A stretch of 64,000 bases of DNA from Blastocatellia bacterium. Lineage in GTDB: Bacteria > Acidobacteriota > Blastocatellia > RBC074. Shown here one piece after another: positions 30,973 through 63,077 of the stretch. Position 1 is the stretch's first letter, and each line of letters begins with the position of its first letter. The notes under the pieces were generated by a model, which worked only from the letters and a program-made list of their open reading frames with translations, had not been told where the DNA came from and did not search any database. The stretch covers positions 8,314-72,313 of the forward strand of contig DATEMY010000358.1 of assembly GCA_035275345.1 (NCBI GenBank), read 5' to 3'. A program made the translations under genes and the position numbers.

Positions 30973-30975
30973 TTA

Positions 30976-41596: not shown

Positions 41597-41786
41597 TTCA
41601 TCCATCATTAACACCGCCGGCATCGAATCTTATTCTTTGGCGCGATCGGTCACTCGACTTGGCGCGTTCGGTCATTGTGCGGAATATCTTTTTGGGAGTA
41701 TCTGATAAAGGTAATCCGCCCTGGGCCATATATTGCGCTTTGTTTGAGCGATATCTTACAACGAAACTTTTGTGGGAGGTTACAAG

Positions 41787-44700
41787 ATGAAGAGTTTAAG
41801 ACCGCGCAAGGCTTCTGCGGTTTTATTGAGCCGCTTGAATAGGCTTCTGTCGGCCATGTCACTGATGGCGCTGCTGGCGGGTGTAACCGCATTAGGGCAG
41901 ACCACCACGGCGACCCTGTCAGGCGTAATCCAGGATCCATCCGGCGGCGTCCTTCCCAGTGTGAGGATCAGCGCGAGGAACACGGGCACGGGCGCTACGC
42001 GTGAGACCGCGACTGACAGCGCGGGTCGTTACAGCCTCACTAATTTGGAGCCCGGGCAATACGAGCTCCGCGCTGAGCGCGCTGGTTTCAAGACGGCGGC
42101 GCAAAGCGGCGTGGTCCTGAGCGTTGGCGGCGCCACGGTGGTGGACCTGACTCTGCGCGTCGGAGAGGTGAGCGAAGTGGTTGATGTAAAACAGGAAGAA
42201 CCGCTCATCGAGCCTACCAGAGCGGAAATGAGCCGCGTTATTGAGGGGCGGCAGATCGAATCTTTGCCCAACATCGGACGTAACTTCGTCGACTTCGTCA
42301 AGCTGTCAGCTTTTGTGGCTCCTGGCCGGGAGAACATCGGCGGCGGAGCCTTCAAGGAACCCGATACAGGTGTGGGACAAGCGGCTGCGCCTCGCTTAGC
42401 GTTCGGCGGCCAGAAAGAGATGCATACGATGATCCTCGTTGACGGCGCGGATAATGTCCAGACCTTTACGGGACTGCCGCGCGCCACTCCCTCGCAGGAA
42501 GCGGCCAGAGAGTTCCGCGTGCTCAACAGCGCCTACCAGGCCGAATATGGCCGAGCGCTCGGCGGCTTCGTCAACATCATCACCAAATCCGGTACGAACC
42601 AACCTCACGGCTCGGTCTACTACTTCGGGATGAACGATGCGCTCAACGCGCGGCCACTGCTGACCACGCCGAGCTACGCTCTCCGGCAAAACCAGTACGG
42701 GGCGACCTTCGGCGGCCCCGTCAGGAAGGATAAGATGTTCTTCTTCGGCAACTACGAGGGGCAGCGGCGCGCCGAGTCGAATAAATTCTCGAAGGTCATC
42801 CTCGATAACCTCGGGCCTGCCGATGGCAGTCAGCCGAATACAATTAACGAAGTGAAAAGATTCTACGGGTTGACGCCTGAAACGTCGGACCTCCTTCGAA
42901 GCAACGATTATGACGGGTTTCTGGCGAAGCTGGATTTCAAACTCACAGACGGCAACAGCCTCTTCGCCCGTTACAACCTCCTGGATTCAACCACGCGGGG
43001 GTTTCTTGGCGGAGGCGGGCGGGCGTCACCGGCCTCGTCAACCGCGAGGAATAACTTTTTGCTCGATCAGTCGCTCGTGGTGAGCGATATTGCGCTGTTC
43101 GGGGCAAACAAGGTCAACGAAGCGCGGGTCCAGTGGGCGCGACGTAGTTTCGATTTTCCGTCGGCGCTCAGGGAGCCTGACCTGGAAATCTCGAACCTGC
43201 TCCTGACCGGGAAGAGCACATCGGATTCCGACTTCTACCGCGAATCAAGATTACAGATCTCCGACAGCTTCAGCTACACCCGTGCGAGCCATGCCTTGAA
43301 GTTTGGGGCTGACTTTAACAACATCCGCGACACGACCGAGTGGGATCTGTTCTTCCCCGCTCGAGTGATCTTTACGAACCTGGGTGGAGCTGGACCGACT
43401 TTTTTCAACCATACTCCGGTGGTCTTTTGGTGGCCGATCCCCACCGGGACCACGCAGGGGACGCCTACGCCCGTCCCCTTTACGCAAGCCGTTCCCGCGC
43501 CATACCAGCCCCTCACCATCATCAAGTTCGATCACAATAGTCTTGGTTTTTTTGTCCAGGATGAGTGGAAAGCGACGTCCAAACTGACGCTCACCTACGG
43601 GCTCCGTTACGACTTTGAAAGCTACCCCAATGAGATCGTGCTGCGCGAGGACCTCAACAATTTTCAGCCGCGACTGGGACTGGCTTATGCCTTAAGTCAG
43701 CGCACCGTCGTTCGCGCCGGATTCGGGATTTTCAGTGACCGCGTCGCTTCGAGCGGCATCGGTCAGATGATCGGTCCCAACATTTTCAACGGCGTCGGGT
43801 ATTTGCCGAACTCTCAGGTCCTGTATCCGGGCATCCCGCCCGTGCGAGGCCGGTTTATCAATCCCACGGTGCGCGGCCCAGTCCTGGCGCCCCCTGCCGC
43901 GCTCACCTTCACCACAACCGGGCAGGTCCCAGCGACGCCGACGGTCGGCGGCGTCATCAATCCGGGACTCAACGGAAACCTCTCCGGAAACCTCCGCACG
44001 CCTTACGCCGAGCAAGCGAGCGTAGAGATTTCTCGTGAGATCGGCGGCGGCGTGATCGTGTCTGCGCGCTACTTATATGTGCACGCTCTCAAGCTGCTGG
44101 CGCCTACAGGCATGCTCAACGGCGCGCAGACCGGGACACAACCCAACGGCAAGCCCATCTTCGGGGCAAGAAGATTTCCGGAGCTGGGCGACTTCTTTGT
44201 TTTCGACAATGGCGGATACTCCATTTTTAACGGCGGGAGTTTCGAACTCCAGAAGCGGTTCGCGCAGGGTTTCAGTTTTCACAGCAGCTATACTTACTCT
44301 CAGTCCATCAGCAACACCGAGTCCGTGGCTGCAGTCAACGACTTTCCCGAGAACCCCGAGCGGAATTTGGAGCGCGCGCTATCACGCCAGCACGCTCGCC
44401 ACCGTTACACCCTGGCCTTCGTCAGTCAAATTCCGCATGGCGTGCCCGTCCTGAGCGATGTCAGGTTCAGTTCGATCCTTACCGCCCAAAGCGGCCGGTT
44501 CTTCACCGTCTTTGCCGGCTCGGACGCCAATGGCGACGGCAACCCGACCAGCGACCGCCCCGGCGCGCTCGGCCGCAACACGCTGGAAGGTCCCGGATTT
44601 GTCAGCTTCGACCTGCGCGTCGCGCGCGAAGTCCGGATGGGCGAGCGCCTGCGCGCCGAATTCACTTTCGATTTCTTCAACCTGCCCAATCGTGTCAATA

Positions 44701-44831
44701 TCACGGATCTCAACACGCTTTATGGAGGGACCGATCTCAGCTTGCCTCCGAATCCCATTCTGGGATTTGGCACGCCGCGCGATGTCGCGAATCCGCGGCA
44801 GATCCAATACGGAATCAAGCTGAAATTTTAG
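41787..44831 (+). CDS. TonB-dependent outer-membrane receptor with N-terminal carboxypeptidase-regulatory-like domain
   Basis: Signal peptide. CarbopepD_reg-like segment (SGVIQDPSGGVLPSVRISARNTGTGATRETATDSAGRYSLTNLEPGQYELRAERAGFK), plug region, long beta-barrel. C-terminal ...YGIKLKF ending in Phe. Confidence 0.75.
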   Translation: MKSLRPRKASAVLLSRLNRLLSAMSLMALLAGVTALGQTTTATLSGVIQDPSGGVLPSVRISARNTGTGATRETATDSAGRYSLTNLEPGQYELRAERAGFKTAAQSGVVLSVGGATVVDLTLRVGEVSEVVDVKQEEPLIEPTRAEMSRVIEGRQIESLPNIGRNFVDFVKLSAFVAPGRENIGGGAFKEPDTGVGQAAAPRLAFGGQKEMHTMILVDGADNVQTFTGLPRATPSQEAAREFRVLNSAYQAEYGRALGGFVNIITKSGTNQPHGSVYYFGMNDALNARPLLTTPSYALRQNQYGATFGGPVRKDKMFFFGNYEGQRRAESNKFSKVILDNLGPADGSQPNTINEVKRFYGLTPETSDLLRSNDYDGFLAKLDFKLTDGNSLFARYNLLDSTTRGFLGGGGRASPASSTARNNFLLDQSLVVSDIALFGANKVNEARVQWARRSFDFPSALREPDLEISNLLLTGKSTSDSDFYRESRLQISDSFSYTRASHALKFGADFNNIRDTTEWDLFFPARVIFTNLGGAGPTFFNHTPVVFWWPIPTGTTQGTPTPVPFTQAVPAPYQPLTIIKFDHNSLGFFVQDEWKATSKLTLTYGLRYDFESYPNEIVLREDLNNFQPRLGLAYALSQRTVVRAGFGIFSDRVASSGIGQMIGPNIFNGVGYLPNSQVLYPGIPPVRGRFINPTVRGPVLAPPAALTFTTTGQVPATPTVGGVINPGLNGNLSGNLRTPYAEQASVEISREIGGGVIVSARYLYVHALKLLAPTGMLNGAQTGTQPNGKPIFGARRFPELGDFFVFDNGGYSIFNGGSFELQKRFAQGFSFHSSYTYSQSISNTESVAAVNDFPENPERNLERALSRQHARHRYTLAFVSQIPHGVPVLSDVRFSSILTAQSGRFFTVFAGSDANGDGNPTSDRPGALGRNTLEGPGFVSFDLRVAREVRMGERLRAEFTFDFFNLPNRVNITDLNTLYGGTDLSLPPNPILGFGTPRDVANPRQIQYGIKLKF

Positions 44832-47879: not shown

Positions 47880-48911
47880 TCATACCGAATGGGTTTCGTT
47901 AGCGGAGGGCAGGAACGACTCGATCAAATTTCCCAGATTCTGTGCGGTAGCCAGATCATAGATGAACTTGCTGACAGCCAGGTCGAGAATGCCCAGTCCG
48001 AAGGGGCTGAAGATGACCGGACGATTTCCGTCGCTCCGCGCTTCGGCGGCGCCTCTGATGATGTCTCCGATCGTGCAACGTATGAAGTCACGGTTGCCAG
48101 AAAGCCGTTCGGCCAGATGGACAGAGGTTTCGGCCCGGCACACATGATCAACATCATCAACGACGTTGTCAGACGACAGAATGATTTCCGGAGAGAGGTC
48201 TCGCAATGAGACGTGCAGGATCGTGCTGGCGGGTTGGATGAGAGCCGGATCGAAAATATGCGGCGTGCCCGCAGTGGTCGCCATGCTCACGAGCGTCGCG
48301 CTTCCGAAAACCTCATTGAGATCGCTGGCGACTTCGACGTCGATGTGGCCGAAAACTTCCTGACCTCTGACCTTGAATTCAGCGGCCCGCGACGGATCCA
48401 GGTCGAAGACCTTGAACCGTCGCAGATCGGGGAAAGTGGCGCGCAGAAACCGGGCGATTTCAAAGTTAATCGGGCCACAGCCGACCAATCCTGCCGAGCC
48501 GATCTGTTCTCTGCTACAGAGGAGTTTCGCGGCCAGCGCGGCGCTCGCCGCCGTCCGTTTAGCGCTGATCATCGAACCTTCCAGAATGGCTTCCACCCTT
48601 CCCGTCAATAAGTTATTCAGGATCACGACCGCCGAAGCTCGATCCAGATTTTGGGAGACGTTATCCGGAAAGGAGGAGATCCATTTGATGCCGGCGACAT
48701 TGAACCGGTTTCCGAGGTAGGCCGGGAGCGCGATGATTCGGTTTTGTGGCTGGCCGGGGAATCGCAGGAAACTGGAATGCGGTAGCGAACTTTCTCCCAG
48801 CGCATGGATTTCATAGGCCGCCCCCACGATGTCCATGAGATCGGCTTCACGGTCGCTAATGAGCGAGAGGACTTCCTTCGCGGTTAAGATGCGCACACTG
48901 TTGGAATACAT
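47880..48911 (-). CDS. Ornithine cyclodeaminase/mu-crystallin family NAD-dependent enzyme, SbnB-like
   Basis: OCD-family pattern with Rossmann segment GLVGCGPINFEIARFL; 343 aa. Co-clustered with an SbnA-like gene. Confidence 0.7.
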   Translation of the reverse strand: MYSNSVRILTAKEVLSLISDREADLMDIVGAAYEIHALGESSLPHSSFLRFPGQPQNRIIALPAYLGNRFNVAGIKWISSFPDNVSQNLDRASAVVILNNLLTGRVEAILEGSMISAKRTAASAALAAKLLCSREQIGSAGLVGCGPINFEIARFLRATFPDLRRFKVFDLDPSRAAEFKVRGQEVFGHIDVEVASDLNEVFGSATLVSMATTAGTPHIFDPALIQPASTILHVSLRDLSPEIILSSDNVVDDVDHVCRAETSVHLAERLSGNRDFIRCTIGDIIRGAAEARSDGNRPVIFSPFGLGILDLAVSKFIYDLATAQNLGNLIESFLPSANETHSV

Positions 48912-49020
48912 GAAAAACCTTCAGATTCGTTTCTCGGAGATGGTTTACATCCCGGATATTGTTGCGGAACCACTCGTCAGAGTAGATACATTGGTACTGC
49001 AAAGAGCCGTTTCTTAAAGA

Positions 49021-49626
49021 TCAATTCCCGGCGCTTGTCTCTATTTTTTCCAGCCGGCCATTACCATCGAGTGTTTTGAGGTTTATGTCGGCTATGCATC
49101 TGACATTCACATAATCCAACATCAGGGCGCCTTCGACATGAACCACCCCACTTCCGTTTTCAAAATCGGCTTTGCTGAAATCACAAGCATCACGATCCAA
49201 TCTGATGCCCAATTCCGTGCCCCCCTTCGTCTCGGTGAACTTAACATGAACATAATTGCGATCGACCGCCTCCTTGAAGAGCTTAACAGTCTTTTCCGGA
49301 CGCAGCCCTGCTTCAATGACATGGTCGCCTTCGCAAAGTCTATCCACAAGACTCTTCTCACGCGGCCTGTTCGTGTCGGGAGGCGGAGGCGGAGGCGGAG
49401 GGTTCTTAGCCATCTCCTCCATCTTTTTCTTGAGACTGAGGGGCCTCATATCCGTCCAAACTTCCTTGATGAAAGCGAGGCATTCGGCTTTCGGCCCCAC
49501 TTTCCCGCCGTCATTCCAACCGATTGGGTTCTCTTTGTATTCAGGCCAAATCGAATACTGTTCCTCGTGGTTTACGACAACTTTGTAAGTGGTAGTGTCT
49601 TCTTTGTCAGGGTCGGCCCAACTCAT
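49021..49626 (-). CDS. MbtH-like domain fused via a poly-Pro linker to a C-terminal domain of unknown function
   Basis: N-terminal [49 protein letters not shown] matches the MbtH signature. PPPPPPPP linker, then about 110 aa of unassigned domain. Confidence 0.7.
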
Positions 49627-49628
49627 AA

Positions 49629-50192
49629 TTATGTAATCTCCTTTTTATGTGAAGCCATGGCTGCGCGCGCAGCCGGTTGCTCGAACCGGAGCATTCGTTC
49701 GTCTCTTGTGAGAAGACGGCACAGGCCGTATTCCGTCAAGAAAGTTTTCTCTCCGGCCGAAAAGCCCAGTTGAGTACACAGAAACGATGACTGCGCTACC
49801 GCGGCGCCGAGCACAAGCCAGGTGTACTCAAAATTCCTTGGCGCCACGAACAGCCGGTGCGCTTCCAGCATCATTTTCATTGGGATGTTCAGACCGCGAT
49901 ATGATCGGATTACCGCTAATTGCGTGTAACGAGCCGACCTCGCCGACGGGGTAAATTCCAAGCAACATTTTTGGTGTAGCGCAAGATCTCCAGTGGTTTC
50001 GACCACGCTCAGCGTCGCAACGGGCTTACACTGCAGATCATCGATCGCCAAGATATGAAGCGCGTCTGAATTGTCGCTTACTCTTAGCGGCGCGAGCGCA
50101 ATCTTCAGTTCCTGCTCAAAGACGGATCGTCTGATATCCAACATCGCCGCTTCCTGGAAGCGGGTCGTAACCGGCTCTATTATTATCGCCAT
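49629..50192 (-). CDS. Hypothetical protein, possibly GNAT-fold N-acyltransferase
   Basis: 187 aa; weak resemblance to acyl-CoA N-acyltransferase folds; 2-nt spacing to the MbtH-fusion gene. Confidence 0.3.
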
Positions 50193-50376
50193 TTGAATTT
50201 CTCCTTTCCATAACTTGGAGTTTCCGATCCGGCGATCGATCCGATTCGATTTTCCCGCAATCCAATTTGATTACTCGATCCGCCAGATGAAAATATTTAT
50301 CGTCATGATTGATGGCCAATATGCACTTACCTCGACTTTGCGGGCGCCGTCCGCCACAGGCGAGTTGATCTGTTCT

Positions 50377-51429
50377 CTACGAGTAGAGGGTCCTCAAGGG
50401 GAAAGACTTCATTTCCTGGTCGGTTGGCTGCAAGTTCCAAGATCTCCCTCCCTCCTCAAATGGTATCTCCCAGAGGTGTGAGACATCCCCGAAATGTTCC
50501 AAGACCCATTGGTCCGAATAAATCGTGTCCATATATCGATCGCCTCGGTCCGGCAAGATAACTACGCAATTGGAACCGTCCGGAATTCTACCTTGTGACT
50601 TATTTACCGCGCTGATAACGGCTCCCGAAGATCCGCCCGCCAAAATCAACTCTTCCCTGACAAGTCGGCGGCAACCGACAACGCAATCCAGATCGGACAC
50701 CAGGACACACTCATCCGCCAGGTGAGGCTCGTAAAGCGATGGTCTGACCGACGCGCCATGACCTGGGATCAAGCGACGACTTGTCTTCCCGCCGAAGATC
50801 ACACTGCCTAGCGCGTCTACCGCAATTATTCTGGTTCTCAGATCTTGAACGTAGGCGTACTCAGAGCAACCGCGAAGCGTCCCGCATGTGCTTGTCGCAC
50901 AAAACAAGTAATCGACTCGCCCATCCAGGGCCTCGGCGATTTCACGCATGGTTTGATGATGGGCCTGGGCATTCCACAAGTTCGCATATTGATTCGGCCA
51001 AAAGCTGTGTGGAATCTGCGCCGTCAATTGCTTAACCCGATCGATTCGCGCCTGGAGATACTCGCCCGTAAGAGGGTCAGGTACCGTCACACACTCAATC
51101 TCGGCCCCGTACAGTCTCAAAATGTCGAGATTTTGCTTGGTAGTCTTGGGATCCACCACACACACAAACCGCAGGCCGAAGTACCGGCACATTTGAGCCA
51201 GCCCGATTCCCATATTCCCCGAGCTGGACTCGACTACGGTCGCGCCTGGACTAAGCTCCCCCGATATAACGGCATTTTTGATGATAGTCAGCGCAGTTCG
51301 ATCTTTTATGCTCCCGCCGGGATTAACCCCTTCAAGTTTGGCGAATAATCGAAAGCGCGCGTCAGGAAAAATCCGACTGAGCCGCGCCATCGGGGTATTG
51401 CCGATTTTCGAGATTATATCTCCAATCAT
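50377..51429 (-). CDS. PLP-dependent cysteine-synthase-fold enzyme, SbnA-like (N-(2-amino-2-carboxyethyl)-L-glutamate synthase family)
   Basis: NPGGSIKDR PLP-Lys motif, WPNQYAN, ILPDRGDRY, YSDQWV. Pattern closely parallels staphyloferrin SbnA. ATG at 51429 after GGGGAGAG. Confidence 0.75.
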   Translation of the reverse strand: MIGDIISKIGNTPMARLSRIFPDARFRLFAKLEGVNPGGSIKDRTALTIIKNAVISGELSPGATVVESSSGNMGIGLAQMCRYFGLRFVCVVDPKTTKQNLDILRLYGAEIECVTVPDPLTGEYLQARIDRVKQLTAQIPHSFWPNQYANLWNAQAHHQTMREIAEALDGRVDYLFCATSTCGTLRGCSEYAYVQDLRTRIIAVDALGSVIFGGKTSRRLIPGHGASVRPSLYEPHLADECVLVSDLDCVVGCRRLVREELILAGGSSGAVISAVNKSQGRIPDGSNCVVILPDRGDRYMDTIYSDQWVLEHFGDVSHLWEIPFEEGGRSWNLQPTDQEMKSFPLRTLYS

Positions 51430-51478: not shown

Positions 51479-51888
51479 TTAAACGGGGACGGCTGCTGTT
51501 GATGCAATGGACGTCTTCAACGCATTGGCTAGGCCCCGGACATTTGGCTCTCGTAGGATGGTGGTGTGGTTTCCGGGAACCCGGCGCCGAGTTATTTGCG
51601 CCGATGCATATTTGCCCCAACCCAGAGTCGAATCTGCGGGTTTGTTCTCGTGTCCATCATCGGCGGTGAAGATTGCGATCTCCCCGTGAAAAATTGCGGG
51701 ATTGTATTTTCGCAGAGCCGCCATGTTTTTCTTGGCGACTTCCAGGAAGCGCCGGGCATAGGTGATTTCGATATCAGGTGGTCGAACGGTAAATCAAGAA
51801 CGCCAGGGCTGCCCTTTAACCGGTTGGTCCAATAGTCGAGCTGCGATGTCAGCCCCCCACTTTGCAGCCATTTCTGAAATATCCTCAT
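51479..51888 (-). pseudogene. Frame-scrambled remnants of NRPS condensation and thioesterase domains downstream of the adenylation domain
   Basis: ORF 51592-51888 encodes LDYWTNRLKGSPGVLDLPFDH (condensation-domain N-terminal region). ORF 51479-51724 in another frame encodes AIFTADDGHE...VPGNHTTILREPNVRGLANAL (thioesterase C-terminal region). Neither is a full domain. Confidence 0.45.
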
Positions 51889-53236
51889 GATCGCGTAACA
51901 GCTTTTCTATTTCGCCCAATTCAACTCTTACACCCCTGATCTTGACCTGGTTATCCAGCCGACCGATCAACTCGAAATCCCCATTGAGCGTGACTCGACC
52001 GATGTCTCCTGTTCGGTAGATGAGGTCCTGAGGATCGTTTACGTTAAAGGGGTTCCGAATGAACGACTCCCGAGTCAGTTCAGGTTGTCGATAATATCCA
52101 TGGGAGCGATAGGGAGTGCGGATGAAGATTTCACCGACGACCCCTGGTGGACAGACCTCCATCTTTTCATCGAGCACCAACGCCTTGGCCCCTCTGATCG
52201 GCTTTCCCACCGGGATCAGACGGCGTTCCTGATCTGCAGGTTGGATAAAATAACAGAACTTGGCAAGCGTAGTTTCTGTAGGCCCATAAAGATTGACCAG
52301 TTGGATACGGTCGCCAAAAACGCTATACCATTTCTTCAGATCTGCAGGAAAAATCGGTTCTCCCGCCAGGAGGATGTACTTTAACGATTGGAAAGAATCA
52401 GGGCTCAGGGGCTCATTCAATATTGACCTGAACAGGCTGGGGGTGCAATGCATCAGGTTGATCTGGGCCGAATCAATCCATCTGACCAATTTCTCCGAGT
52501 CGAGCGCCGTCTCCCGATCCGGCGGGAGAGATAGTGTGGCTCCCGCGCATAAAGGTAGAAAGATATCTCTGAGAAACGGGTCAAAGGAGGGCGGAGTGAG
52601 CTGACTTACCCGGAAGTTTTCGTTTACTCCACATGTCTCGATCTCCCAATCTATGAAATGTAATAGACCGCGGCGGCTCCCGGCGATTCCCTTTGGTTTA
52701 CCGGTAGAGCCGGAAGTAAAGTAGATATAGCCGAGGTCCTTCGGGTTGTCGTTTGATACCTTCAACTCTTCCCCGGAAAAACTGGCGCAATGAGGAATCT
52801 TTCTCACGTGAACCGCCTGACCGGCCTTAATCACAATGATGGAGCAATCCGAACGGTTGTTTGCCGCGATCTGCTCGGCCGCTTCCTCGAATCCTTTTTC
52901 CACTATGAATCCTTGCGGCTCCGCTGTCGAGACCATTGCTTTGAGTCGGTTGACCGGGTATTTAGTATCCAGGGGCGCGAAAACGCAATTTGCCTTCAGT
53001 ACTCCGATGATGGATGCCACCAATTCAGCCGTATCCTCTATCAGTAAAGCCACGACGGAGCCATTAGCGACCCCGGCCGACGTCAACAGATCTCGCACCT
53101 TATTCGACCGCTGTTCCAACTCGTCATAAGAAAGTATGTGATCTTGCCATACTATTGCGTCTTTAGATCCGCGCTTTTTACCGCGCTCAATCAGTAAGTC
53201 AACGATTTCGCTGTTAATCGTTTGAGTAAGCTCCAT
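51794..53236 (-). CDS. NRPS adenylation domain, stand-alone and truncated after core A8 (lacks A9/A10 and any carrier domain)
   Basis: Cores A1 LSYDEL, A3 YFTSGSTGKPKGI, A4 FDPF, A5 NLYGPTETT, A7 YRTGDIGR, A8 GRLDNQVKIRGVRVELGEIE. Only about 35 aa follow A8. ATG at 53236 after AAGGAG. Confidence 0.7.
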   Translation of the reverse strand: MELTQTINSEIVDLLIERGKKRGSKDAIVWQDHILSYDELEQRSNKVRDLLTSAGVANGSVVALLIEDTAELVASIIGVLKANCVFAPLDTKYPVNRLKAMVSTAEPQGFIVEKGFEEAAEQIAANNRSDCSIIVIKAGQAVHVRKIPHCASFSGEELKVSNDNPKDLGYIYFTSGSTGKPKGIAGSRRGLLHFIDWEIETCGVNENFRVSQLTPPSFDPFLRDIFLPLCAGATLSLPPDRETALDSEKLVRWIDSAQINLMHCTPSLFRSILNEPLSPDSFQSLKYILLAGEPIFPADLKKWYSVFGDRIQLVNLYGPTETTLAKFCYFIQPADQERRLIPVGKPIRGAKALVLDEKMEVCPPGVVGEIFIRTPYRSHGYYRQPELTRESFIRNPFNVNDPQDLIYRTGDIGRVTLNGDFELIGRLDNQVKIRGVRVELGEIEKLLRDHEDISEMAAKWGADIAARLLDQPVKGQPWRS

Positions 53237-53746: not shown

Positions 53747-56368
53747 TTATGCGGCTTTTGCTAGGCATGCGCCTTGCGTTGCCTTACGACCGGGATGAAC
53801 CAACGCCGGTCTGAACCCATGGCGATCAGCCAGCCAACCCATCTCCCTGACCTTATCAATGTCTAGATCAATTCCGAGGCTGGTATCTTCAAACCTATGC
53901 TCCAAAGCCAGGATCATAGTTTCGGCCATGCAGGCATAGGCAAGCCCGGTGTCTATATCCAGGGTGAAACTGATCTTAGAGTCGCCCGGCAAACTCACCA
54001 CGCCGCCATCGATCACAAAGATATCAGGACGGCTCATTCTGACGGCTCGACTTACATTCGGCGGGCGTGAGATATCACATACAACCGCCCCCTCTTTGAT
54101 GTATTCAGGCGCCGCCAAATCACCTGCTACATTTGTCGAAGTAATCACTACGTCAGCTTCTAGGAGCGACTGACGCATGTCGCGAGTGTCGGTAATAACA
54201 CACAAGCGGCGCCCCATTTCTGTGGCGAGTCCAATCCAATCTATCCTGCCTCTGTCCTGACGTCCGGCAAGCAGGAGGTCGCAGATCTCACCGGCGAGTG
54301 TTCCTTTAAGAAAGCTTTTGCCTTGCAAACCCAGTTCCTGGATCGAGCGTAAAATTTCCACGCTTACTTGTACCAGGCGGCGCTTACTCTCCGCCGGACG
54401 AGCCGGATTTCCGATTAAAAACAGTCTCTCTACATGCTGCGAGAGCAGAATGGAGATGGCGCGCCCTATCGAACCTGTGGCGCCCACAACTGCCGTACAG
54501 CTTGTAGACAAACGGCGCCCAGTCATCTCAAGCGCCGCTTCGATGGATTGCTTGGCGGCGACGGCAGTATAGGAGTTGCCAGTGGTCAGCGGCGGCAATC
54601 CATTGTCTCCGAGGTAAAGACCACCACGCGTTACTATCGACGTATACGCGCCCAATCCGATTATTTTCGCTCCCCTTTCCTGAGCTATCCGCACCGCCGT
54701 CCTTATTTCTGATACGGCCTCGTAATAGGGCATCTGCGTCAGCTCTTCCGCGGTGCGCGGCACGATAATGAACTCGCCGTAAGCAGTCTGACCAGTCTTT
54801 GAGACGACGTGCGCATCGCCGATTACGAATGGGTCAAAATTCTCGGCGACACATGAGGCCAGTCGCGCAACCTGCCGATCTGAAAGTATGCTAAGGCTTG
54901 TGTCGATGTTCGCATAGTCACGCACTGTCAATGGATGCAGAAGAAAGGCAAAGCGATTGACTCTATCGGTCACGGGGAATTGGTAGACGTTCGAACGCCC
55001 CTGGGGCTTCAACTCCTTGACGTCAACATCTATTCCCGTAAGATGGGTGGTGAAATACGCCGTGTTGCGTAACTCCAATGCATCCAGGGTATCTTCAAAA
55101 GCTTCCAGGAAAAGCTCACACTCCTTCCAGGTAGCGATCAGCGGAGGTTCGATGCGGAGCACCCCGCCATCGTTCAGGGTATATCCTAGGCGTACGCCGC
55201 TTACCGCCAGCATACGACTCACAACGAGCGAAGCTAAGGCTTCATTTTCTCCAAGGCAGCCCAGCAGACCGGAACCCCAGTTGAAGCGGTTGATGCCTAA
55301 ACGAATTCCCAGCATGTAGCCGCGTCCGCTAATTACGTTGACAATGTTCGGATGTTTCTCCTTAAGATACTGCAATTCCTGTTTCAAGCGAGCGCCGTTA
55401 TCCGCAACCTGCCTGATTAACTGGCGGTCGTTTTCCTCCAGGAGATCCAGCGTGGCCAATCCGATTCTGCACGCGAGAGTATTTCCGGCGAAAGTAGAAG
55501 TGTGCTTCAGCGCGAAATCATCATTGTAAACATCTTCCTTACATAAGCAGGCGCCGATCGGCGCCAGCCCGCCGCCGAGGGCTTTAGCAATGGTAATAAC
55601 ATCCGGAATAACCCCCTCAGTATCGCAGGCAAACATCGCACCGGTGCGCCCCAAACCTGTTTGGATTTCATCGACGATCATCTTGGTCCCGCTTTTCCTA
55701 CAGATTTCTCCGGATTGCGCGAGATACCCTGGAGGCGCCTCGATGATCCCCCCTTCTCCTTGAATCGGTTCGACGATGAAGGCCGAATAAAACCGGCTGG
55801 CTAACGCGCGTTCAAGCGCCCCAAGATCGCCGAAAGGAACATAATCAAACCCATTGACCGGCGCCCCGAAACCTTCCTGATACTTTCTCTTATCGGTTGC
55901 GGACAGGGCGCCCAGGGTTTTCCCATGGAAACCGTTATTGGTGGCCAGAACACCGATCCTGCCTGTGCTGGACCGGCACAGCTTAAGAGCGGCTTCGACC
56001 GTTTCAGCCCCACTGTTGGCAAAGGTCACGTACTTCATACCCGGTGGCGCCACATTGACCAGCCGCTTTGCTAATTCACCGGCGGCTTCAAGGCAGGAGG
56101 GTTGAACTAAGCTCGGCTCAAGACGTGTTCGCACCTGCTCAACGGCTTGCCATATATATGGATTGTTGAACCCGAATGGGAGGGCGCCATATTGAGCCAG
56201 AAAGTCCAGATAACGCCTTCCCGACTGATCGTAAAGGTAACAACCTTCCCCCCGAACGAACACCTTATCCATCTCAAATTGCGACATCAACCGCCCAAGG
56301 CGCGGATTCATATGGTTGAAGAACGGATGATCCCGTCTTAAAGACTTTTCTTGTTCGTCTTTCATCAT
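53747..56368 (-). CDS. Bifunctional fusion: class-III (omega) aminotransferase domain + acyl-ACP reductase (AAR)-like NAD(P)H-dependent reductase domain
   Basis: N-terminus has PLP motifs DEIQTGLGRTG and ITIAKALGGG. C-terminal 340 aa (GAYTSIVTRGG...TTGNSYTAVAAK...AVVGATGSIGRAISILL...DKVREMGWLADRHGFRPALV) parallels cyanobacterial acyl-ACP reductase. Start ATGATG at 56368 after AAAGGAG. Confidence 0.75.
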   Translation of the reverse strand: MMKDEQEKSLRRDHPFFNHMNPRLGRLMSQFEMDKVFVRGEGCYLYDQSGRRYLDFLAQYGALPFGFNNPYIWQAVEQVRTRLEPSLVQPSCLEAAGELAKRLVNVAPPGMKYVTFANSGAETVEAALKLCRSSTGRIGVLATNNGFHGKTLGALSATDKRKYQEGFGAPVNGFDYVPFGDLGALERALASRFYSAFIVEPIQGEGGIIEAPPGYLAQSGEICRKSGTKMIVDEIQTGLGRTGAMFACDTEGVIPDVITIAKALGGGLAPIGACLCKEDVYNDDFALKHTSTFAGNTLACRIGLATLDLLEENDRQLIRQVADNGARLKQELQYLKEKHPNIVNVISGRGYMLGIRLGINRFNWGSGLLGCLGENEALASLVVSRMLAVSGVRLGYTLNDGGVLRIEPPLIATWKECELFLEAFEDTLDALELRNTAYFTTHLTGIDVDVKELKPQGRSNVYQFPVTDRVNRFAFLLHPLTVRDYANIDTSLSILSDRQVARLASCVAENFDPFVIGDAHVVSKTGQTAYGEFIIVPRTAEELTQMPYYEAVSEIRTAVRIAQERGAKIIGLGAYTSIVTRGGLYLGDNGLPPLTTGNSYTAVAAKQSIEAALEMTGRRLSTSCTAVVGATGSIGRAISILLSQHVERLFLIGNPARPAESKRRLVQVSVEILRSIQELGLQGKSFLKGTLAGEICDLLLAGRQDRGRIDWIGLATEMGRRLCVITDTRDMRQSLLEADVVITSTNVAGDLAAPEYIKEGAVVCDISRPPNVSRAVRMSRPDIFVIDGGVVSLPGDSKISFTLDIDTGLAYACMAETMILALEHRFEDTSLGIDLDIDKVREMGWLADRHGFRPALVHPGRKATQGACLAKAA

Positions 56369-58424
56369 TGTCGCTCCTTTCATTTTTCGTGGGGTAAACA
56401 AGAAGGAATGACGCTAATTGGGATATGCTTGGATCGCCTCTGAAAAGGTTGTCAATGGGAACCTCTATCCCAAGCGATTCTTCAATACTGCTTACAAGCT
56501 CGGTTGCGGCAAGAGAGTCCAGACCATAGCGGGCAATAGGCTGATCCGTGTCTATTTTATGGGGGCTGATATTAAACATTGAGGAACACTTAAGCGACAG
56601 CCAAGCTTTCAATGACTCCAAGGTCCGCGGCGCGTCTTCGGGCTGGAGAGTTTGCCCGCTCGCCGACTGGCTGGCTGTGAACTGGCGTCGATAAACCGAC
56701 TCCAGGCTTTCGTTCAGAAACGCGGAGCGGACTGCGCTGCGCTGAATCTTACCGCTGGATGTTTTCAGTAAGCTTCCAGGTCTAATCAATACGATGGTGG
56801 AAATATCTATTTCGTGTTCTACCAGGATCGCCTGGCGGACGCTATCCACCACTTCATTCATATCGACACTGTTTCGACGCTCACGATTCAATTCGGCGAC
56901 TAAGATCAATCGCTCCGTCTCATCACCAGCTACGGCGAAAGCCGCCGAACATCCCGGACGCAACGCCGGGTGACTCGCTTCCGCCGTAATCTCTATATCC
57001 TGCGGGTAATGGTTGCGTCCGCGAATGACGATCAGGTCCTTAATGCGCCCGGTCACATATAAGTCGCCATGAAAGAGGACTCCAAGGTCTCCCGTGCGTA
57101 GGTATGGACCTTCATTGGTATCGGTGAGCCGCGCGCGGAAAGTCGCATCGGTCAACTCCGGTCTTCCCCAATATCCTTGAGCCACGGCGGCGCTCGATAC
57201 CCAGATTTCTCCCACTTGACATTCATCACATTTAGTGAGGGTCTGTGGATTAACGGTAATAATTCGTTCTCCGAGCCATGTCCGTCCGCTGCTTACAAGC
57301 GTTACTCCGTCCTGAAGACGACTGGACACAATCGCTCTGTGATCTTCCAGCCCGGCTTTATCGAAAGTAGTGACGGCCGGAGCTTTTGAACCTACGCCTC
57401 CACTCACAAATAAGGTAGCTTCGGCGAGTCCATAGCATGGATATAACGCCTCCGGGCGAAACCCGTATGGTGAAAAGGCCTCGGCAAATCGTCTCAGCGT
57501 CTCATCTCGAACAGGTTCCGAACCGTTGAATGCGGTTCTCCAGCAACTCAGGTCCAACCCCTCGAGGTCTTCCTGACGCGCTTTACGCACACAGAGATCG
57601 TATGCGAAGTTTGGCCCCCCGCTGAAAGTGGCCCTGTATTTCGATATGGCCTTCAACCAACATGCCGGTTTCTGTAGGAACTCCGTAGGCGCCATCAGGT
57701 AACACGGAGCGCCATTGTACATTCCCGCAAGAATGTTCCCGATTAGGCCCATGTCGTGATACATCGGTAACCATGACACGATGACAGTGTCGCCATCATG
57801 TCGGAGGCCTTCTCTCATCATCGCCTGGTTATATAGGAGGTTACCGTGACTCACCAGCACGCCTTTCGGCGTCGAAGTGGAACCGGATGTGTATTGCAGA
57901 AATGCGATGGTCTCCTCATTAACTCTGGTTTCCTTCCAGAGTTCCGCCTGCCCCAGGTCGACGTCGTCTGTTATAACCCACCGTATGGATCTTAACTTGG
58001 GGATCTGATCCAACTGGTTTTGAAGGCGTGAGAATATAGCCGAGGTAGTCAATGCGACTACCGGGTTTGAATCATCAATAATAGCTAGTAAACGTCCCAG
58101 ATTTTGGTTCAATCGTGGCGGATTAGCGGGAACGGCCACAGCCCTTCCATAAAGACAGGCGTAAAAAGCGACGATATAATCCAACCCTGGCGGGTAGAGA
58201 AGCAGGACCCGTTCATCCTGCGCCTTCAGCTCCTGAAGATGGGCGGCGACGGCGCGGGCTTTATGCTGTAATTGAGCGAAGGTCAACCGGTCCGCCTCTT
58301 CACAATCAGATAGAAAAACATAGCTTGGCTGGTCCGGTTGTATTTTGGCCATTGCGTTCATTACATCAATGAACGAAGAGGCGCGACTCAAATCAAATCC
58401 ATATTGTGATATTTGACTATTCAT
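56274..58424 (-). CDS. Fatty acyl-AMP ligase (FAAL) fused to a C-terminal acyl carrier protein domain
   Basis: AMP-binding cores (YTSGSTSTPKGV, YRTGDLG, GRIKDLIVIRGRNHYPQDIE). C-terminal PP-binding segment LDSLAATELVSSIEESLGIEVPIDNLF with Ser in DSL. 8-nt overlap (ATGAATAG) with the upstream receiver gene. Confidence 0.8.
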   Translation of the reverse strand: MNSQISQYGFDLSRASSFIDVMNAMAKIQPDQPSYVFLSDCEEADRLTFAQLQHKARAVAAHLQELKAQDERVLLLYPPGLDYIVAFYACLYGRAVAVPANPPRLNQNLGRLLAIIDDSNPVVALTTSAIFSRLQNQLDQIPKLRSIRWVITDDVDLGQAELWKETRVNEETIAFLQYTSGSTSTPKGVLVSHGNLLYNQAMMREGLRHDGDTVIVSWLPMYHDMGLIGNILAGMYNGAPCYLMAPTEFLQKPACWLKAISKYRATFSGGPNFAYDLCVRKARQEDLEGLDLSCWRTAFNGSEPVRDETLRRFAEAFSPYGFRPEALYPCYGLAEATLFVSGGVGSKAPAVTTFDKAGLEDHRAIVSSRLQDGVTLVSSGRTWLGERIITVNPQTLTKCDECQVGEIWVSSAAVAQGYWGRPELTDATFRARLTDTNEGPYLRTGDLGVLFHGDLYVTGRIKDLIVIRGRNHYPQDIEITAEASHPALRPGCSAAFAVAGDETERLILVAELNRERRNSVDMNEVVDSVRQAILVEHEIDISTIVLIRPGSLLKTSSGKIQRSAVRSAFLNESLESVYRRQFTASQSASGQTLQPEDAPRTLESLKAWLSLKCSSMFNISPHKIDTDQPIARYGLDSLAATELVSSIEESLGIEVPIDNLFRGDPSISQLASFLLVYPTKNERSDNDERRTRKVFKTGSSVLQPYESAPWAVDVAI

Positions 58425-58806
58425 GGCTCACCTTTCCGACAAGCTCAAATACAATTCGAGCGACTTCCGACAGAGGCTTCGGCTTGTGCAGGAACGCGTG
58501 CGCGCCGCAATCTCGGGCGGCCGACTCTACATCGCTGGAACCGTAAGCCGTTAAGACAATAACTCGCATTTCAGGGAATCGTTCCCGAGCCATACTTATT
58601 ACCTCGAACCCGTCCAGGCTATGAGTTCCACTTAAGTCCAAATCTACAATCACAGCTGAATAGCAAGATGTGTTAAGGAGACTCGCAGCTTCGTCTACGG
58701 CATGGGCGCAATCAACTTGATAGTCATACAGCTTGAAGTACTCGCGCATTGCGAAGCAGAGCGTCGCTTTATCGTCAACCATCAGTATTTTTCTCTCGCC
58801 GTACAT
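58417..58806 (-). CDS. Stand-alone response-regulator receiver domain (CheY-like)
   Basis: 129 aa; conserved DD...D...K receiver pattern (MVDDK, VIVDLDL, LTAYG, HAFLHKP). Confidence 0.75.
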   Translation of the reverse strand: MYGERKILMVDDKATLCFAMREYFKLYDYQVDCAHAVDEAASLLNTSCYSAVIVDLDLSGTHSLDGFEVISMARERFPEMRVIVLTAYGSSDVESAARDCGAHAFLHKPKPLSEVARIVFELVGKVSHE

Positions 58807-58939: not shown

Positions 58940-60295
58940 CTAGACTTTGGACGTGGTTATCTGGAACTTCTTGATTTTCTGGTAAAGCGAACTTCGGGGG
59001 ATACCAAGGCGCTTCGCCGCGCGTTCGACCTGGCCATTCTCCTCCGCAAGCACCAGTTCGATGTGTCGACGTTCGAGTTCCAGCAGGGAAAGTTGTGAAT
59101 CATAGACCGGCGTTTCCCTCTTCGCCGCGTCATCGAAGCGCAGGTCTGTGGCCAGCAGAATGCGCCGCTCGCTGAGCAGCGCTGCGCGTTCGAGCACATT
59201 GCGCAACTCACGTATATTCCCCGGCCAAGCATACGCCAGAAGCGCGCGTTCCGCATCCGGCGATAGTTCCAAGTCGTTACGACCGAGGTCGGCGGCGCAT
59301 TTTGCAAGCAGATGCCGCGCGAGCGCCGGTATGTCCTCGACTCTTTCCCGGAGGGCCGGCGTCATCAGTGGAATTGTGCTGATTCGATAGTAAAGGTCAC
59401 TGCGGAATCTATTTTCCCTCATTAATCGGCTGAGGTCCTGACAGGTAGCGGCGACCAGGCGGACATCGACTTGCCGGTCGCGAACACTTCCCAGCCGACG
59501 GAACTTTTGTTCCTCCAGAACCTTGAGTAGTTTTGGTTGCACTTGCAAATCGACGTCTCCGATCTCGTCAAGGAATACCGTGCCGCGATGGGCCACTTCG
59601 AATAGGCCGAGTTTGCTTGTCGTCGCCCCGGTGAATGCCCCCTTCTCGTGGCCGAACAACTCAGTTTCAAGAAACCCTTGTGACAACCCCGCACAGTTAA
59701 GATCAACAAAAGGTTCTTCGCATCGGGCGCTGTTGTTATGTATCCACTGCGAGAGCACGCCCTTGCCAACGCCCGTTTCGCCGAGAAGCAGGATTGGGCT
59801 CTCCGTCGACAACACCCTTTTTGACTGTTCGGCCAATTGTCTGATGGCGGCGCTAGAGCCGATGAACGGATCGACGGCTTGGCGGGCTTGTTGCGACTTC
59901 CGGGCAATTTGCTTCCGAAGGTTGCGCTGGTTTTCAAGCAAACGCTCGAGAATGACCAGAAGTGTTGAAAGGTCAAGCGGCTTGGTAAGAAATTGCTCGG
60001 CGCCTTCCTTAATCGCCCGCACCGCCAGGTCGATTGACCCGTGGCCGGTCAGAATAATTAGAGGGGCGCCCGGATCTATCGCTTTCAGTCGAGGTAAGAG
60101 ATCGAGCGCAGTGCCGTCCGGCAATAAATAGTCGATGACGGCTGCATCGGGGCGCATAGCCCTAAACATATCTTCCGCTCCCCGACAACAGTTCGTGTCA
60201 TAAGCCTCATACCCGTGCGCCTCAAGAAATTCGCGCATTCCGAATCGGACGCCGGATTCGTCATCTACTATCAAAATCTTACTCTTCGACATCAA
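58940..60295 (-). CDS. Sigma-54-dependent response regulator (NtrC family): receiver + AAA+ sigma-54 activator + Fis-type HTH
   Basis: Receiver (ILIVDDE...D...K). Walker A LLGETGVGKGV. GAFTGA loop (HEKGAFTGATT). Arginine finger region. C-terminal HTH RAAKRLGIPRSSLYQKIKKF. Confidence 0.8.
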   Translation of the reverse strand: MMSKSKILIVDDESGVRFGMREFLEAHGYEAYDTNCCRGAEDMFRAMRPDAAVIDYLLPDGTALDLLPRLKAIDPGAPLIILTGHGSIDLAVRAIKEGAEQFLTKPLDLSTLLVILERLLENQRNLRKQIARKSQQARQAVDPFIGSSAAIRQLAEQSKRVLSTESPILLLGETGVGKGVLSQWIHNNSARCEEPFVDLNCAGLSQGFLETELFGHEKGAFTGATTSKLGLFEVAHRGTVFLDEIGDVDLQVQPKLLKVLEEQKFRRLGSVRDRQVDVRLVAATCQDLSRLMRENRFRSDLYYRISTIPLMTPALRERVEDIPALARHLLAKCAADLGRNDLELSPDAERALLAYAWPGNIRELRNVLERAALLSERRILLATDLRFDDAAKRETPVYDSQLSLLELERRHIELVLAEENGQVERAAKRLGIPRSSLYQKIKKFQITTSKV

Positions 60296-60768
60296 AGCAC
60301 ATCCCCTAAAATTTTATTAGCCGCGCTCGGCCGGGATACTCACGACAATTTCGGCCCCGTCCCCTGAAGGATTTGCCTGCCATGATCTTTCCGCTATGGT
60401 CCTGCGCAATCCGCTGCGCAATAGCGTTATCCACCCTCCTGTAAAAAGGCAGTTTAATTAGAAAGCCGCGGCTTCATGCGCTGATTCTTCCCGACTAGCC
60501 CTTGAGCCTGATTGTAATTTTGCAACCGCAGTTTTGCCAAACCCTTCTGAAAGTTTTAGAAAGGGCGATTGCGCGAGGACAGACTTCACCTGCGAGCGTC
60601 GTCAAGATGGCTTCTGCTTTAGTGATGCGGATTCCGCCGAACAGTCCGGCTACGACGGTAATGAAACAAGGACCGATGTGGTTTTCATAGGAATCGAGCT
60701 AAGGAATTTTCCGCTATTACGTCTGGACGCCAACAATAACCCCGTCCCATAGGTCGCCGAACTCGACT

Positions 60769-61513
60769 TCAACGCCGCCCCTGCAAATTAGCCCACTCGC
60801 CTGACTGAATGAAACCGGCCCAATAAAACGGATGGCGGCGATCCTGGCTCTTCAGCATCCGCAACTGCACCTGGCGCAACGCCGCGCTGCGTCCTCGCCC
60901 CTGTTGTAAGGCCTTGTAATAATCGACCATCAGGCCCAATGTCTGGTGGCGCAAGGTCCGGCAGAAAAAAGCCATGCGTAGCAATGTGAAGCAGGTGGGG
61001 GCCGCGCATCTGCTTGACCGCCACTTCGGTCGCTTGATCGCTCAACAGAACCACGGCTTCAGGCAACACCTTTTTGAGCGCCAGCGCCTCGTCCGCTGTC
61101 GCCGATAATGGAAGGAAGAAAAGGCCGTCGAGGTTAGCGCTGGAGGTTTTGGCGTCTTGAGTCCCCTGGCGTACATTTGCCACCTCGCCATAATTCGGAT
61201 TGGCCACGATCAAGGCCGGCTGCCTGCTCGACTGCTTCACCTGCAAGCGCAGCAGATCGCGCCCGCTTGTCAGATAACTGAACTCGTAGCGTTCAACCAG
61301 AAATCGAGATCGCTCATCCACGAGCGCGGCAAAAGGGATGAGATTGAGCATCCCATCCGGCGAGAGCAACACCCTGAGCGTCGCGCCCAACCGCGTACGC
61401 ACTGGCTGCATCACCAGCCGGTCCAACGCGCGCGCCCATCGCGACACATCGCGCCGCTTGGGATCGCGAAGCGCCTGGCGCCAGGCTTCGATCTCGCGAT
61501 CTATCGCCTTCAC
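60769..61513 (-). pseudogene. CHAT (caspase-like) domain gene, apparently frameshifted
   Basis: ORF 60788-61513 carries the HIATHG catalytic-His region and then turns into non-CHAT sequence. A separate frame (60769-60984) encodes the CHAT C-terminal HPFYWAGFIQSGEW. Confidence 0.45.
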
Positions 61514-61917
61514 TTCGCCGCCAATTCTTCGAGAAGCGATCCGCCGATTACCGCCGTGATATCCACGACGGTCTTTTCTTGCTGGTCGACCTGCGCGTTA
61601 ACTTCGAGCGTCCGCAATCCGGCCGCGACCTCCTGCCCGCGCAGCATTTTGACAGCATAGAGCAGTTGGGAATCGAGTTTTTGCTGCGCGGGCGAGCGCG
61701 ACGCCTTCTCATCCAGCAGTGATCGAATCTGGCGCAGCGCGCTATCGGAAATTCTCGGGGCGCGGCCTTGAGTTGCGCCAATCACAACCGAACTGGACGC
61801 AGGTCGGCTGAAGAGGTAAGGCCAACCGCCGATGCCGGCCGTAACCAGCAATCCCATGATCATAAGCAGAATCATCGAACCGAACAGAAACTTGAAGTAA
61901 TTGGCTGGAACTTTCAT
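61510..61917 (-). CDS. Hypothetical N-terminally membrane-anchored protein; ATGA-coupled to (or N-terminal part of) the CHAT gene
   Basis: TM helix FKFLFGSMILLMIMGLLVTAGIGGW, then soluble region; stop overlaps the CHAT ORF start. Confidence 0.35.
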   Translation of the reverse strand: MKVPANYFKFLFGSMILLMIMGLLVTAGIGGWPYLFSRPASSSVVIGATQGRAPRISDSALRQIRSLLDEKASRSPAQQKLDSQLLYAVKMLRGQEVAAGLRTLEVNAQVDQQEKTVVDITAVIGGSLLEELAAK

Positions 61918-62050
61918 CGAGTGGCCTCCTCATTAACGTTGAAGTTTAGGCGCGGCGCGTCCATTTGCGAGCCGCGCCTGATTTGGTTGTTTAGGGTTGC
62001 GAATCACGCTCTAAGTTATTGGCGCCATGCGAAAGCGTTTCTCCTCCGGC

Positions 62051-62728: not shown

Positions 62729-63077
62729 GAAACTACCGAACGTCTGTCCGGGTACGCCGATGCGCTGACTGATTGTGTTGATTTTCAGCGCGCAGAGCTT
62801 GGTACTCCCGCAAAGCTTCCTCGGGAAATATTGGCGTTGATCTCGCAGTAGACAGACTGCTCCTCACCAAGGCTTAGGGCCTCGCTTAAGAAACTCGCAG
62901 CTTGAAACAGTTCGGCTGATTACAAGGCGACGCGCTCAAGTTAGCGGTCCATGTTTACTCCTGATCGTGAAGTATCAGCGCGCGTATCCACATCTCTCCT
63001 CGGCCCCCCTGCGTCAGACAGGCAGCCGAAGCTAATGAGATTGGCTTTCCTGTCTGTTCATTAATGGCGGTTGAGCG

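Follow-up and report, generated by a model that had tools for sequence, protein, structure and literature searches.

A putative L-2,3-diaminopropionate gene pair of the SbnA/SbnB type beside fragments of a nonribosomal peptide synthetase in a Blastocatellia contig

The window analyzed in this study is a stretch of 64,000 nt from a contig of a Blastocatellia bacterium (GenBank assembly GCA_035275345.1, contig DATEMY010000358.1, positions 8,314 to 72,313 of the forward strand). Its subject is a pair of genes between 47880 and 51429, the products of which resemble SbnA and SbnB, the enzymes that make L-2,3-diaminopropionate (L-Dap) from O-phospho-L-serine and glutamate in Staphylococcus. The pair belongs to a cluster in which every gene, from 60295 down to 47880, is located on the minus strand. 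The cluster starts with two regulator genes and two genes for fusion proteins, which are followed by fragments of a nonribosomal peptide synthetase (NRPS) gene, the SbnA-like gene, the remnant of a transporter gene, and the genes for a GNAT-fold protein, an MbtH-like protein, and the SbnB-like protein.

The SbnA-family and SbnB-family genes

The SbnA-like gene (50377..51429, minus strand) is an intact open reading frame (ORF) for a predicted fold-type II pyridoxal phosphate (PLP)-dependent enzyme of 350 aa, a putative N-(2-amino-2-carboxyethyl)-L-glutamate synthase. Its start was placed at the ATG at 51429, while the mechanical ORF reaches a TTG at 51507. The gene calls on the source contig agree with the limits of both the SbnA-like and the SbnB-like ORF. 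With the NCBIfam equivalog model for SbnA (TIGR03945), the protein reached 430.1 bits (cutoff 349.95, E=3.7e-129). The models for cysKM (208 bits), cysK (194 bits), cysM (160 bits), and cystathionine beta-synthase (CBS, 238 bits) each remained below their own cutoffs, and the Pfam family PALP was matched with 209 bits. Four motifs on which a preliminary description of this DNA had based the assignment were all read in the translation, i.e., GVNPGGSIKDR, FWPNQYAN, VILPDRGDRY, and YSDQWV. Their counterparts in the alignment with S. aureus SbnA are NPGGSMKDR, WINQYAN, ILPDRGDRY, and YSDTWL. Among solved structures, S. aureus SbnA (5d84) was the best match with 258 bits, followed by a mycobacterial CBS (187 bits), CmnB (171 bits), and cysteine synthases (about 150 bits). 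S. aureus SbnA is also the nearest characterized protein, with 43% identity.

In S. aureus SbnA, Lys47 is the lysine that forms the Schiff base with PLP, and Arg132, Tyr152, and Ser185 set the selectivity for O-phosphoserine (PMC12414870). A check of the O-phosphoserine-binding residues had been proposed in the preliminary description, and in the phmmer alignment to 5d84 all four positions (K47, R132, Y152, and S185 in S. aureus numbering) turned out to be identical in the window protein. The equivalents of the arginine and the serine are missing from M. tuberculosis CBS and from 9k2p in the same alignment. A neighbor-joining tree was calculated from 27 sequences and 316 columns with 200 bootstraps; it included the window protein, 20 homologues from the fetched loci, S. 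aureus SbnA, M. tuberculosis Rv1077, 9k2p, and E. coli CysK and CysM. The window protein, the SbnB-linked homologues, and S. aureus SbnA formed one clade in 200 of the 200 bootstraps, and E. coli CysK and CysM, Rv1077, and 9k2p were all placed outside it. The preliminary description had named a grouping with CysK/CysM as the result that would speak against SbnA; the window protein does not group with these enzymes, and therefore the proposal stands on this point. On the evidence of its sequence, the product of 50377-51429 is thus a member of the SbnA family and not an ordinary CysK/CysM enzyme.

The SbnB-like gene (47880..48911, minus strand) is likewise an intact ORF, the stop codon of which ends at base 47880. 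Its 343-aa product is a predicted NAD-dependent dehydrogenase with the ornithine cyclodeaminase/mu-crystallin fold. It reached 413.1 bits with the SbnB equivalog model TIGR03944 (cutoff 326.9, E=6.9e-124) and 121 bits with PF02423. The models for ornithine cyclodeaminase, the ectoine enzyme EutC, pyrroline-2-carboxylate reductase, and archaeal alanine dehydrogenase yielded 38–114 bits against cutoffs of 266–500, among them 49 bits for the ornithine cyclodeaminase model NF005762 (cutoff 350) and 114 bits for the archaeal alanine dehydrogenase model (cutoff 409). In a search of the PDB, S. aureus SbnB (4m54) was the best match with 128 bits, compared with 37 bits for the ornithine cyclodeaminase of P. 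putida (1u7h), and the window protein aligns with S. aureus SbnB at the G-C-G dinucleotide-fold motif. The preliminary description had named a grouping with genuine ornithine cyclodeaminases of proline metabolism as a result that would speak against SbnB, and the scores for NF005762 and 1u7h are in disagreement with such a grouping. The product of 47880-48911 is accordingly classified as a member of the SbnB family and not as an ornithine cyclodeaminase of the proline pathway.

The two genes share one strand, and 1.5 kb with two ORFs separates them. Of 80 genome loci, 41 have a homologue of the window SbnB (45–60% identity) immediately beside an SbnA homologue. In summary, the SbnA-like and SbnB-like pair was recovered as it had been described, with both equivalog cutoffs passed at E values that chance cannot explain, all four motifs present, and exact coordinates.

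Fragments of an NRPS and its exporter, and the intact neighbors

Upstream of the SbnA gene, three pieces of an NRPS gene were found, each in a different frame of the minus strand. The first piece (51794..53236) encodes the core of an adenylation domain up to motif A8 and has a frameshifted tail. The Pfam model AMP-binding covers positions 4-384 of its 384 profile positions, and TIGR01733 gave 364 bits, but neither AMP-binding_C nor PP-binding was matched in this piece, so that both the A9/A10 subdomain and the carrier domain are absent. The translation stops 23 residues past the sequence RGVRVELGEIE, which is motif A8. The second piece (51788..51876, second frame) encodes some 32 residues that correspond to the central part of a condensation domain, QKWLQSGGLTSQLDYWTNRLKGSPGVLDLPFD. 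Dozens of condensation domains in related loci are matched at this stretch with 40–58% identity, and the piece aligns weakly with positions 184-236 of the 456 positions of Pfam Condensation (E 0.048). The third piece (51479..51787, third frame) encodes the C-terminal 102 or so residues of a thioesterase and a stop codon, and the catalytic N-terminal part is missing. It has 77% identity to the end of the thioesterase-containing gene of locus L001 and 26–33% identity to the ends of NRPS thioesterases elsewhere, and it matches positions 144-221 of the 226 positions of Pfam Thioesterase weakly. A complete NRPS module, that is, an adenylation domain with A9/A10, a carrier domain, and a condensation domain and/or a thioesterase with its catalytic serine, was not found in the window.

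L001 is the closest relative of the window, with 93% nucleotide identity over the SbnA gene. It stems from another sample that, judged by the accessions, apparently belongs to the same ENA series. The comparison with L001 revealed further losses. The reading frame of its thioesterase continues upstream and aligns with other thioesterase domains. Between the thioesterase stop codon and SbnA, L001 contains a gene for a B12-binding radical SAM protein and a 57-aa ORF (634-2302 of L001), neither of which has a counterpart in the window. Between SbnA and the GNAT gene, it encodes a complete ABC transporter (ABC_tran) of 581 aa. Only the last 72 codons of this gene are left in the window (50125..50340, minus strand; 75% identity to residues 508-579 of the L001 protein), and residues 1-507 have no counterpart. 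In the DNA alignment, positions 3443-4978 of L001 are absent from the window. Nevertheless, SbnA, SbnB, the GNAT-fold protein, the MbtH fusion, and two further fusion proteins encoded upstream, a fatty acyl-AMP ligase (FAAL) with an acyl carrier protein (ACP) domain and an aminotransferase-reductase, are all encoded by intact ORFs beside the NRPS debris.

The two ORFs between the pair encode an MbtH-like and a GNAT-fold protein. The MbtH-like protein (49021..49626, minus strand) has 201 aa, including an extra C-terminal domain of about 120 aa; it matched Pfam MbtH with 72 bits and PA2412 MbtH with 91 bits over residues 10-73. The C-terminal domain (49021-49380, minus strand) reached 28 bits with Pfam CBF_beta, a eukaryotic family with a cutoff of 25, and a sequence search for a solved relative of this domain found none. 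The whole fusion is 77–82% identical to the copies in L005 and L086, where SbnA is only 65–66% identical.

The second ORF (49629..50192, minus strand) encodes a divergent protein of 187 aa, or of 171 aa if translation starts at the ATG at 50144, and is a putative GNAT-fold acyltransferase. A Pfam scan of the protein itself gave no match. It belongs to a small family with 112 representatives among 1.84 billion proteins. The family profile and the relatives match GNAT models weakly; among 45 members, Acetyltransf_7 was matched in 19, Acetyltransf_1 in 14, and FeeM in 5. An AlphaFold model based on the 45-sequence alignment had a pLDDT of 92.9, and the top Foldseek matches of the model were SACOL1063, FeeM, ElaA, and BjaI (E 1e-9 to 1e-7). 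The best GNAT match had an E value of 3.5e-9 but a TM-score of only about 0.65. At the level of the predicted fold, it is thus right to call the protein GNAT-like. Across 91 loci, the family hidden Markov model detected the GNAT gene together with SbnA only in the window contig and in L001, and a conserved GNAT-SbnA partnership was rejected. In locus L091, the gene of a 49%-identical family member (P0243) has a NusG paralogue on one side and a Lip_A_acyltrans (LpxL-type) gene on the other (481-2941), a neighborhood hinting at a lipid-related role of this rare family.

The preliminary description had listed an MbtH-type protein, a GNAT-like ORF, and an adenylation domain as neighbors of the pair. 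The first of these is indeed present, but it is fused to an extra domain, the second holds by fold, and the third is a truncated remnant.

Upstream of the NRPS fragments, a gene for an 854-aa fusion of a class-III aminotransferase and a C-terminal domain resembling acyl-ACP reductases is located (53747..56311, minus strand). It matched Aminotran_3 with 287 bits, and its C-terminal half matched the N-domain of PigE (4ppm, 101 bits) and a cyanobacterial acyl-ACP reductase (6jzq, 70 bits). The identity to the orthologue in L086 is 81%. The order of its domains is the reverse of that in PigE, and the gene directly follows that for the FAAL-ACP. Homologues with about 50% identity were found in Symbiobacterium, Thermaerobacter, Stigmatella, Archangium, and Streptomyces, some of them with an added carrier or docking domain. 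The FAAL-ACP (56274..58424, minus strand) has 716 aa with AMP-binding, DIP2-like C-terminal, and PP-binding domains and reached 493 bits with the fatty-acid--AMP ligase model NF004509. Together, the two fusion proteins look like a module for the conversion of an acyl-ACP via the aldehyde to the amine. The head of the cluster is formed by a receiver-only response regulator (58417-58806, minus strand; Pfam Response_reg), which has 70% identity to the L086 gene at the same position, and by a sigma-54 activator response regulator (58940-60295, minus strand; Response_reg, Sigma54_activat, and HTH_8), which has 87% identity to its L086 counterpart. A scan for promoters and terminators between 47.5 and 59 kb yielded counts no higher than in shuffled sequence.

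The G+C content is about 0.60 over the first 48 kb and drops to 0.51–0.54 over the cluster (48–60 kb), and this drop at about 48000 would be in keeping with an acquired cluster. On the other side, a CHAT-domain ORF (60788-61513) has only 241 aa, compared with the 973-aa TPR-CHAT protein of a relative, and the region 60300-63000 is crowded with short overlapping ORFs, which suggests that more decayed genes are located beside the cluster. The remainder of the window contains two hypF-hypD-hypE sets (499-5542 and 28654-34337, plus strand), which flank genes for alternative complex III, a cytochrome oxidase, and an NiFe hydrogenase with its maturation genes. Pfam further identified a rhamnogalacturonan-lyase-like protein and an AraC-controlled unit for uptake, a ligase, and an amidohydrolase.

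Related loci and the siderophore question

A genome scan yielded 80 loci with SbnA relatives of 58–68% identity. The hosts include Acidobacteriota (Blastocatellia, Pyrinomonadaceae, Thermoanaerobaculia, and Holophagales), Streptomyces, Plantactinospora, and others. The neighborhoods were counted for those 55 loci that had 5 kb or more of flanking sequence on each side. An NRPS adenylation domain within 10 kb was present in 47 of these, an adjacent SbnB in 31, an MbtH gene in 18, and an FAAL in 13. At 22 of the 55 loci (e.g., L008, L010, L020, L030, L040, and L046), no SbnB homologue, defined by at least 40% identity over at least 250 aa, was found within 10 kb. The second step of L-Dap synthesis may be encoded elsewhere or performed by another enzyme in these cases.

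More distant from the window than L001 are L086/L087, L088, and L005. They share the regulators, the FAAL-ACP, the aminotransferase-reductase, the MbtH fusion, and SbnA with it (65–87% identity), and in L086, L087, and L088 the gene order continues into large NRPS genes. Besides large NRPS genes, this group of relatives has genes for a NusG paralogue, an HSP90 protein, and another sigma-54 activator. None of these genes, and none of the large NRPS genes, is present in the window. The NusG paralogue, HSP90, and activator genes are located at 10013-14191 in L086, at 12649-15082 in L088, and at 6513-7097 and 12962-14902 in L005. The HSP90-family gene was found in L086 and L005 and was not called in L088; the second activator was found in L086 and L088.

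The preliminary description had stated that the region contains no genes for synthetases of the NRPS-independent siderophore (NIS) type. This was confirmed. When the plausible genes of the window were scanned with Pfam, IucA/IucC was not matched, and it was absent from the precomputed Pfam labels of the contig genes over the next 8.7 kb or so past the right end of the window and from the labeled contexts of the relatives L002, L005, L086, and L088. For the visible DNA, an NIS pathway of the staphyloferrin type is thus excluded. In the relative L005, a TonB-dependent receptor is encoded about 8 kb from SbnB, and it is possible that the intact ancestral cluster made a siderophore of the NRPS type. 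A TonB-type outer-membrane protein in the window (41772-44831) was rejected as a siderophore marker; its gene is on the opposite strand in DNA of higher G+C content, and its neighbors encode an AraC regulator, an acyl-CoA-ligase-like protein, and an amidohydrolase. The preliminary description had placed the pair outside a siderophore context. The NRPS-type setting was verified, but the arrangement is not unusual, because the same use is known and 47 of the 55 related loci contain adenylation domains.

The likely role of the pair and its place among known systems

Taken together, the results make it very probable that the pair is a genuine L-Dap cassette that was the precursor supply of an FAAL-primed NRPS-type cluster, which is now decaying, and that it was not part of an NIS pathway. 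By analogy to the S. aureus enzymes, SbnA would exchange, in a PLP-dependent reaction, the phosphate of O-phospho-L-serine for the amino group of L-glutamate, yielding N-(2-amino-2-carboxyethyl)-L-glutamate (ACEGA), and SbnB would oxidize ACEGA with NAD+ to L-Dap and 2-oxoglutarate. The L-Dap would have been fed into the now-lost NRPS. Recent decay of the cluster is favored over a supply of L-Dap in trans and over an NRPS-independent lipoamino-acid route, the latter being ranked as the least likely of the three. The preliminary description had proposed that L-Dap is a building block for the product of the cluster. For the window locus this proposal does not hold in that form; because the NRPS is reduced to debris, the exporter to 72 codons, and several genes of the relatives are gone, the locus probably does not make a peptide product.

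Several points weigh against this reading and have to be considered together with the alternatives. The source is a single short-read MEGAHIT metagenome contig (k141_2494077, ENA sample ERZ27257057) from a Blastocatellia metagenome-assembled genome (MAG; locus tags VJ810_), and the deletions could in principle be assembly errors. SbnA has been under purifying selection, with a dN/dS (ratio of nonsynonymous to synonymous substitution rates) of 0.18 in comparison with L001. Lastly, none of the close relatives has a known activity or product, and even the nearest characterized protein, S. aureus SbnA, shares only 43% identity.

The selection on SbnA bears on the alternative that the cassette is still in use, and that L-Dap is supplied in trans to an NRPS or another pathway encoded elsewhere in the genome, so that only the local assembly line was lost. 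The dN/dS values were 0.18 for SbnA, 0.42 for the GNAT gene, and 0.38 for the thioesterase tail, each of them an average over the lineages of the window and of L001 that may predate the deletions. The value for SbnA is in line with long-term constraint and with L-Dap still being consumed, perhaps through an NRPS in another part of the genome. SbnA, SbnB, the GNAT-fold protein, and the MbtH fusion are encoded by full-length ORFs, and several acidobacterial MAGs contain at least two SbnA loci (L007 and L010, L012 and L030, L048 and L050), which makes a supply in trans plausible. However, the contig has no other NRPS gene in the 47 kb that adjoin the cluster on one side or in the roughly 14 kb that adjoin it on the other, and the averaging of the dN/dS values weakens the argument from constraint. 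Overall, a supply in trans is considered rather unlikely.

The origin of the sequence from one short-read contig, together with the frequent misassembly of repetitive NRPS genes, could mean that the decay is an artefact, in which case the NRPS, the exporter, and the accessory genes would be intact and the pair would feed L-Dap into a lipopeptide. The structure of the junctions argues for a real event. A repeat collapse joins homologous positions in frame, but here motif A8 is joined to the middle of a condensation domain, and this in turn to the late part of a thioesterase, in different frames. Further losses, those of the radical SAM gene and of 507 codons from the ABC transporter gene, are independent and affect non-repetitive DNA, and the adjacent CHAT gene is truncated, too. 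The junctions are at about 51.88, 51.78, 51.47–51.53, and 50.34 kb. Because non-homologous positions meet in different frames and the losses number four or more, each independent of the others, real gene decay that left three out-of-frame NRPS fragments is the favored explanation, and an assembly artefact is judged to be improbable.

The intact FAAL-ACP and its neighbor, the acyl-ACP-reductase-like fusion, can also be viewed as parts of a lipoamino-acid route without an NRPS. In such a route, the FAAL-ACP would load a fatty acid and the GNAT-fold protein, which is similar in fold to FeeM and to AHL synthases, would transfer the acyl group from the carrier to L-Dap, or a fatty amine generated by the reductase-aminotransferase would be joined to L-Dap. 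The similarity of the GNAT model to FeeM, an acyl-ACP-dependent N-acyl amino acid synthase, and to BjaI is consistent with this idea, as are the FeeM matches of 5 of the 45 family members and the position of P0243, which is flanked by genes for a NusG paralogue and a lipid-A-type acyltransferase. In contrast, the top fold match is the generic small GNAT SACOL1063 with a low TM-score, the GNAT gene accompanies SbnA in just two of the 91 loci, the window and L001, and in the relatives the FAAL-ACP and the fusion precede large NRPSs and not GNATs. Moreover, the MbtH protein and the NRPS debris indicate an NRPS ancestry. Little probability is therefore left for this route, and the chance is slimmer still that the intact survivors form a working NRPS-independent pathway to N-acyl-L-Dap or a fatty-amine-Dap conjugate and that the GNAT family, the members of which have about 200 aa and lack a Pfam model, represents a novel type of N-acyl amino acid synthase that depends on carrier proteins.

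That the pair makes another diamino acid, e.g., 2,3-diaminobutyrate from O-phosphothreonine and aspartate by DabB/DabC-type chemistry, was rejected as most improbable: DabB/DabC are a homologous PLP enzyme and dehydrogenase that can also make L-Dap (PMC10906522), but the window SbnA scores above its equivalog cutoff and retains all residues for O-phosphoserine selectivity, and no GHMP-type threonine kinase (DabA) was found in the Pfam scans of the window.

The implications of these results hardly extend past annotation. They confirm that SbnA/SbnB cassettes for L-Dap are frequent as precursor modules in the NRPS clusters of soil Acidobacteriota, the natural products of which are almost entirely uncharacterized, and L-Dap is flagged as a likely residue in this acidobacterial family of lipopeptides. 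The window also calls for caution in genome mining: an MbtH protein, an adenylation domain, and precursor genes score as a cluster even though the assembly line is debris. The intact relatives L086/L087 (contig Ga0187894_10002548), L088, and L005 (on a 1.14-Mb contig) are the copies worth expressing rather than that of the window.

The central idea of the preliminary description, an L-Dap pair in an NRPS cluster, is correct in kind and has been known since 2003–2011. The supply of L-Dap to viomycin by SbnA/SbnB homologues was proposed in 2003 (PMC3179956), and homologues of this type were listed for zwittermicin A, viomycin, dapdiamide, and an "unknown polyketide-NRPS" locus of Acidobacterium capsulatum (Beasley et al. 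2011, PMC3179956). Characterized L-Dap pairs are SulH/SulG of sulfazecin and CmnB/CmnK of capreomycin (PMC10906522). In comparison with staphyloferrin B of S. aureus, the same two families are encoded in one operon in both cases, but sbnA and sbnB are adjacent in S. aureus, whereas the pair of the window is split by two genes. In addition, the staphyloferrin B system has the NIS synthetases SbnC/E/F, and the pair of the window is instead located beside an FAAL-ACP, an MbtH protein, and the remains of an NRPS. In this respect, it follows the same logic as VioB/VioK of viomycin, CmnB/CmnK, Zwa5A/Zwa5B of zwittermicin A, DdaA/DdaB of dapdiamide, and SulH/SulG, in which an L-Dap pair is part of the non-NIS cluster of an antibiotic made by an NRPS or an amide ligase (PMC3179956, PMC10906522). 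Nevertheless, the proteins are nearer to S. aureus SbnA/SbnB than to CmnB/CmnK (258 versus 171 bits and 128 versus 76 bits, respectively), and, in contrast to the antibiotic clusters, the assembly line is destroyed.

Within the same phylum, ACP_1153 of A. capsulatum is a fused SbnA-SbnB protein in a locus for a polyketide synthase and an NRPS, whereas the genes of the window are separate. The loci in MAGs of Blastocatellia, Pyrinomonadaceae, and Thermoanaerobaculia (58–68% identity) are mostly located beside adenylation domains, and they differ from the window in that its cluster is partly deleted. A further difference from the SbnA-SbnB-NRPS loci of Acidobacteriota is that a member of a rare GNAT family is inserted in the window.

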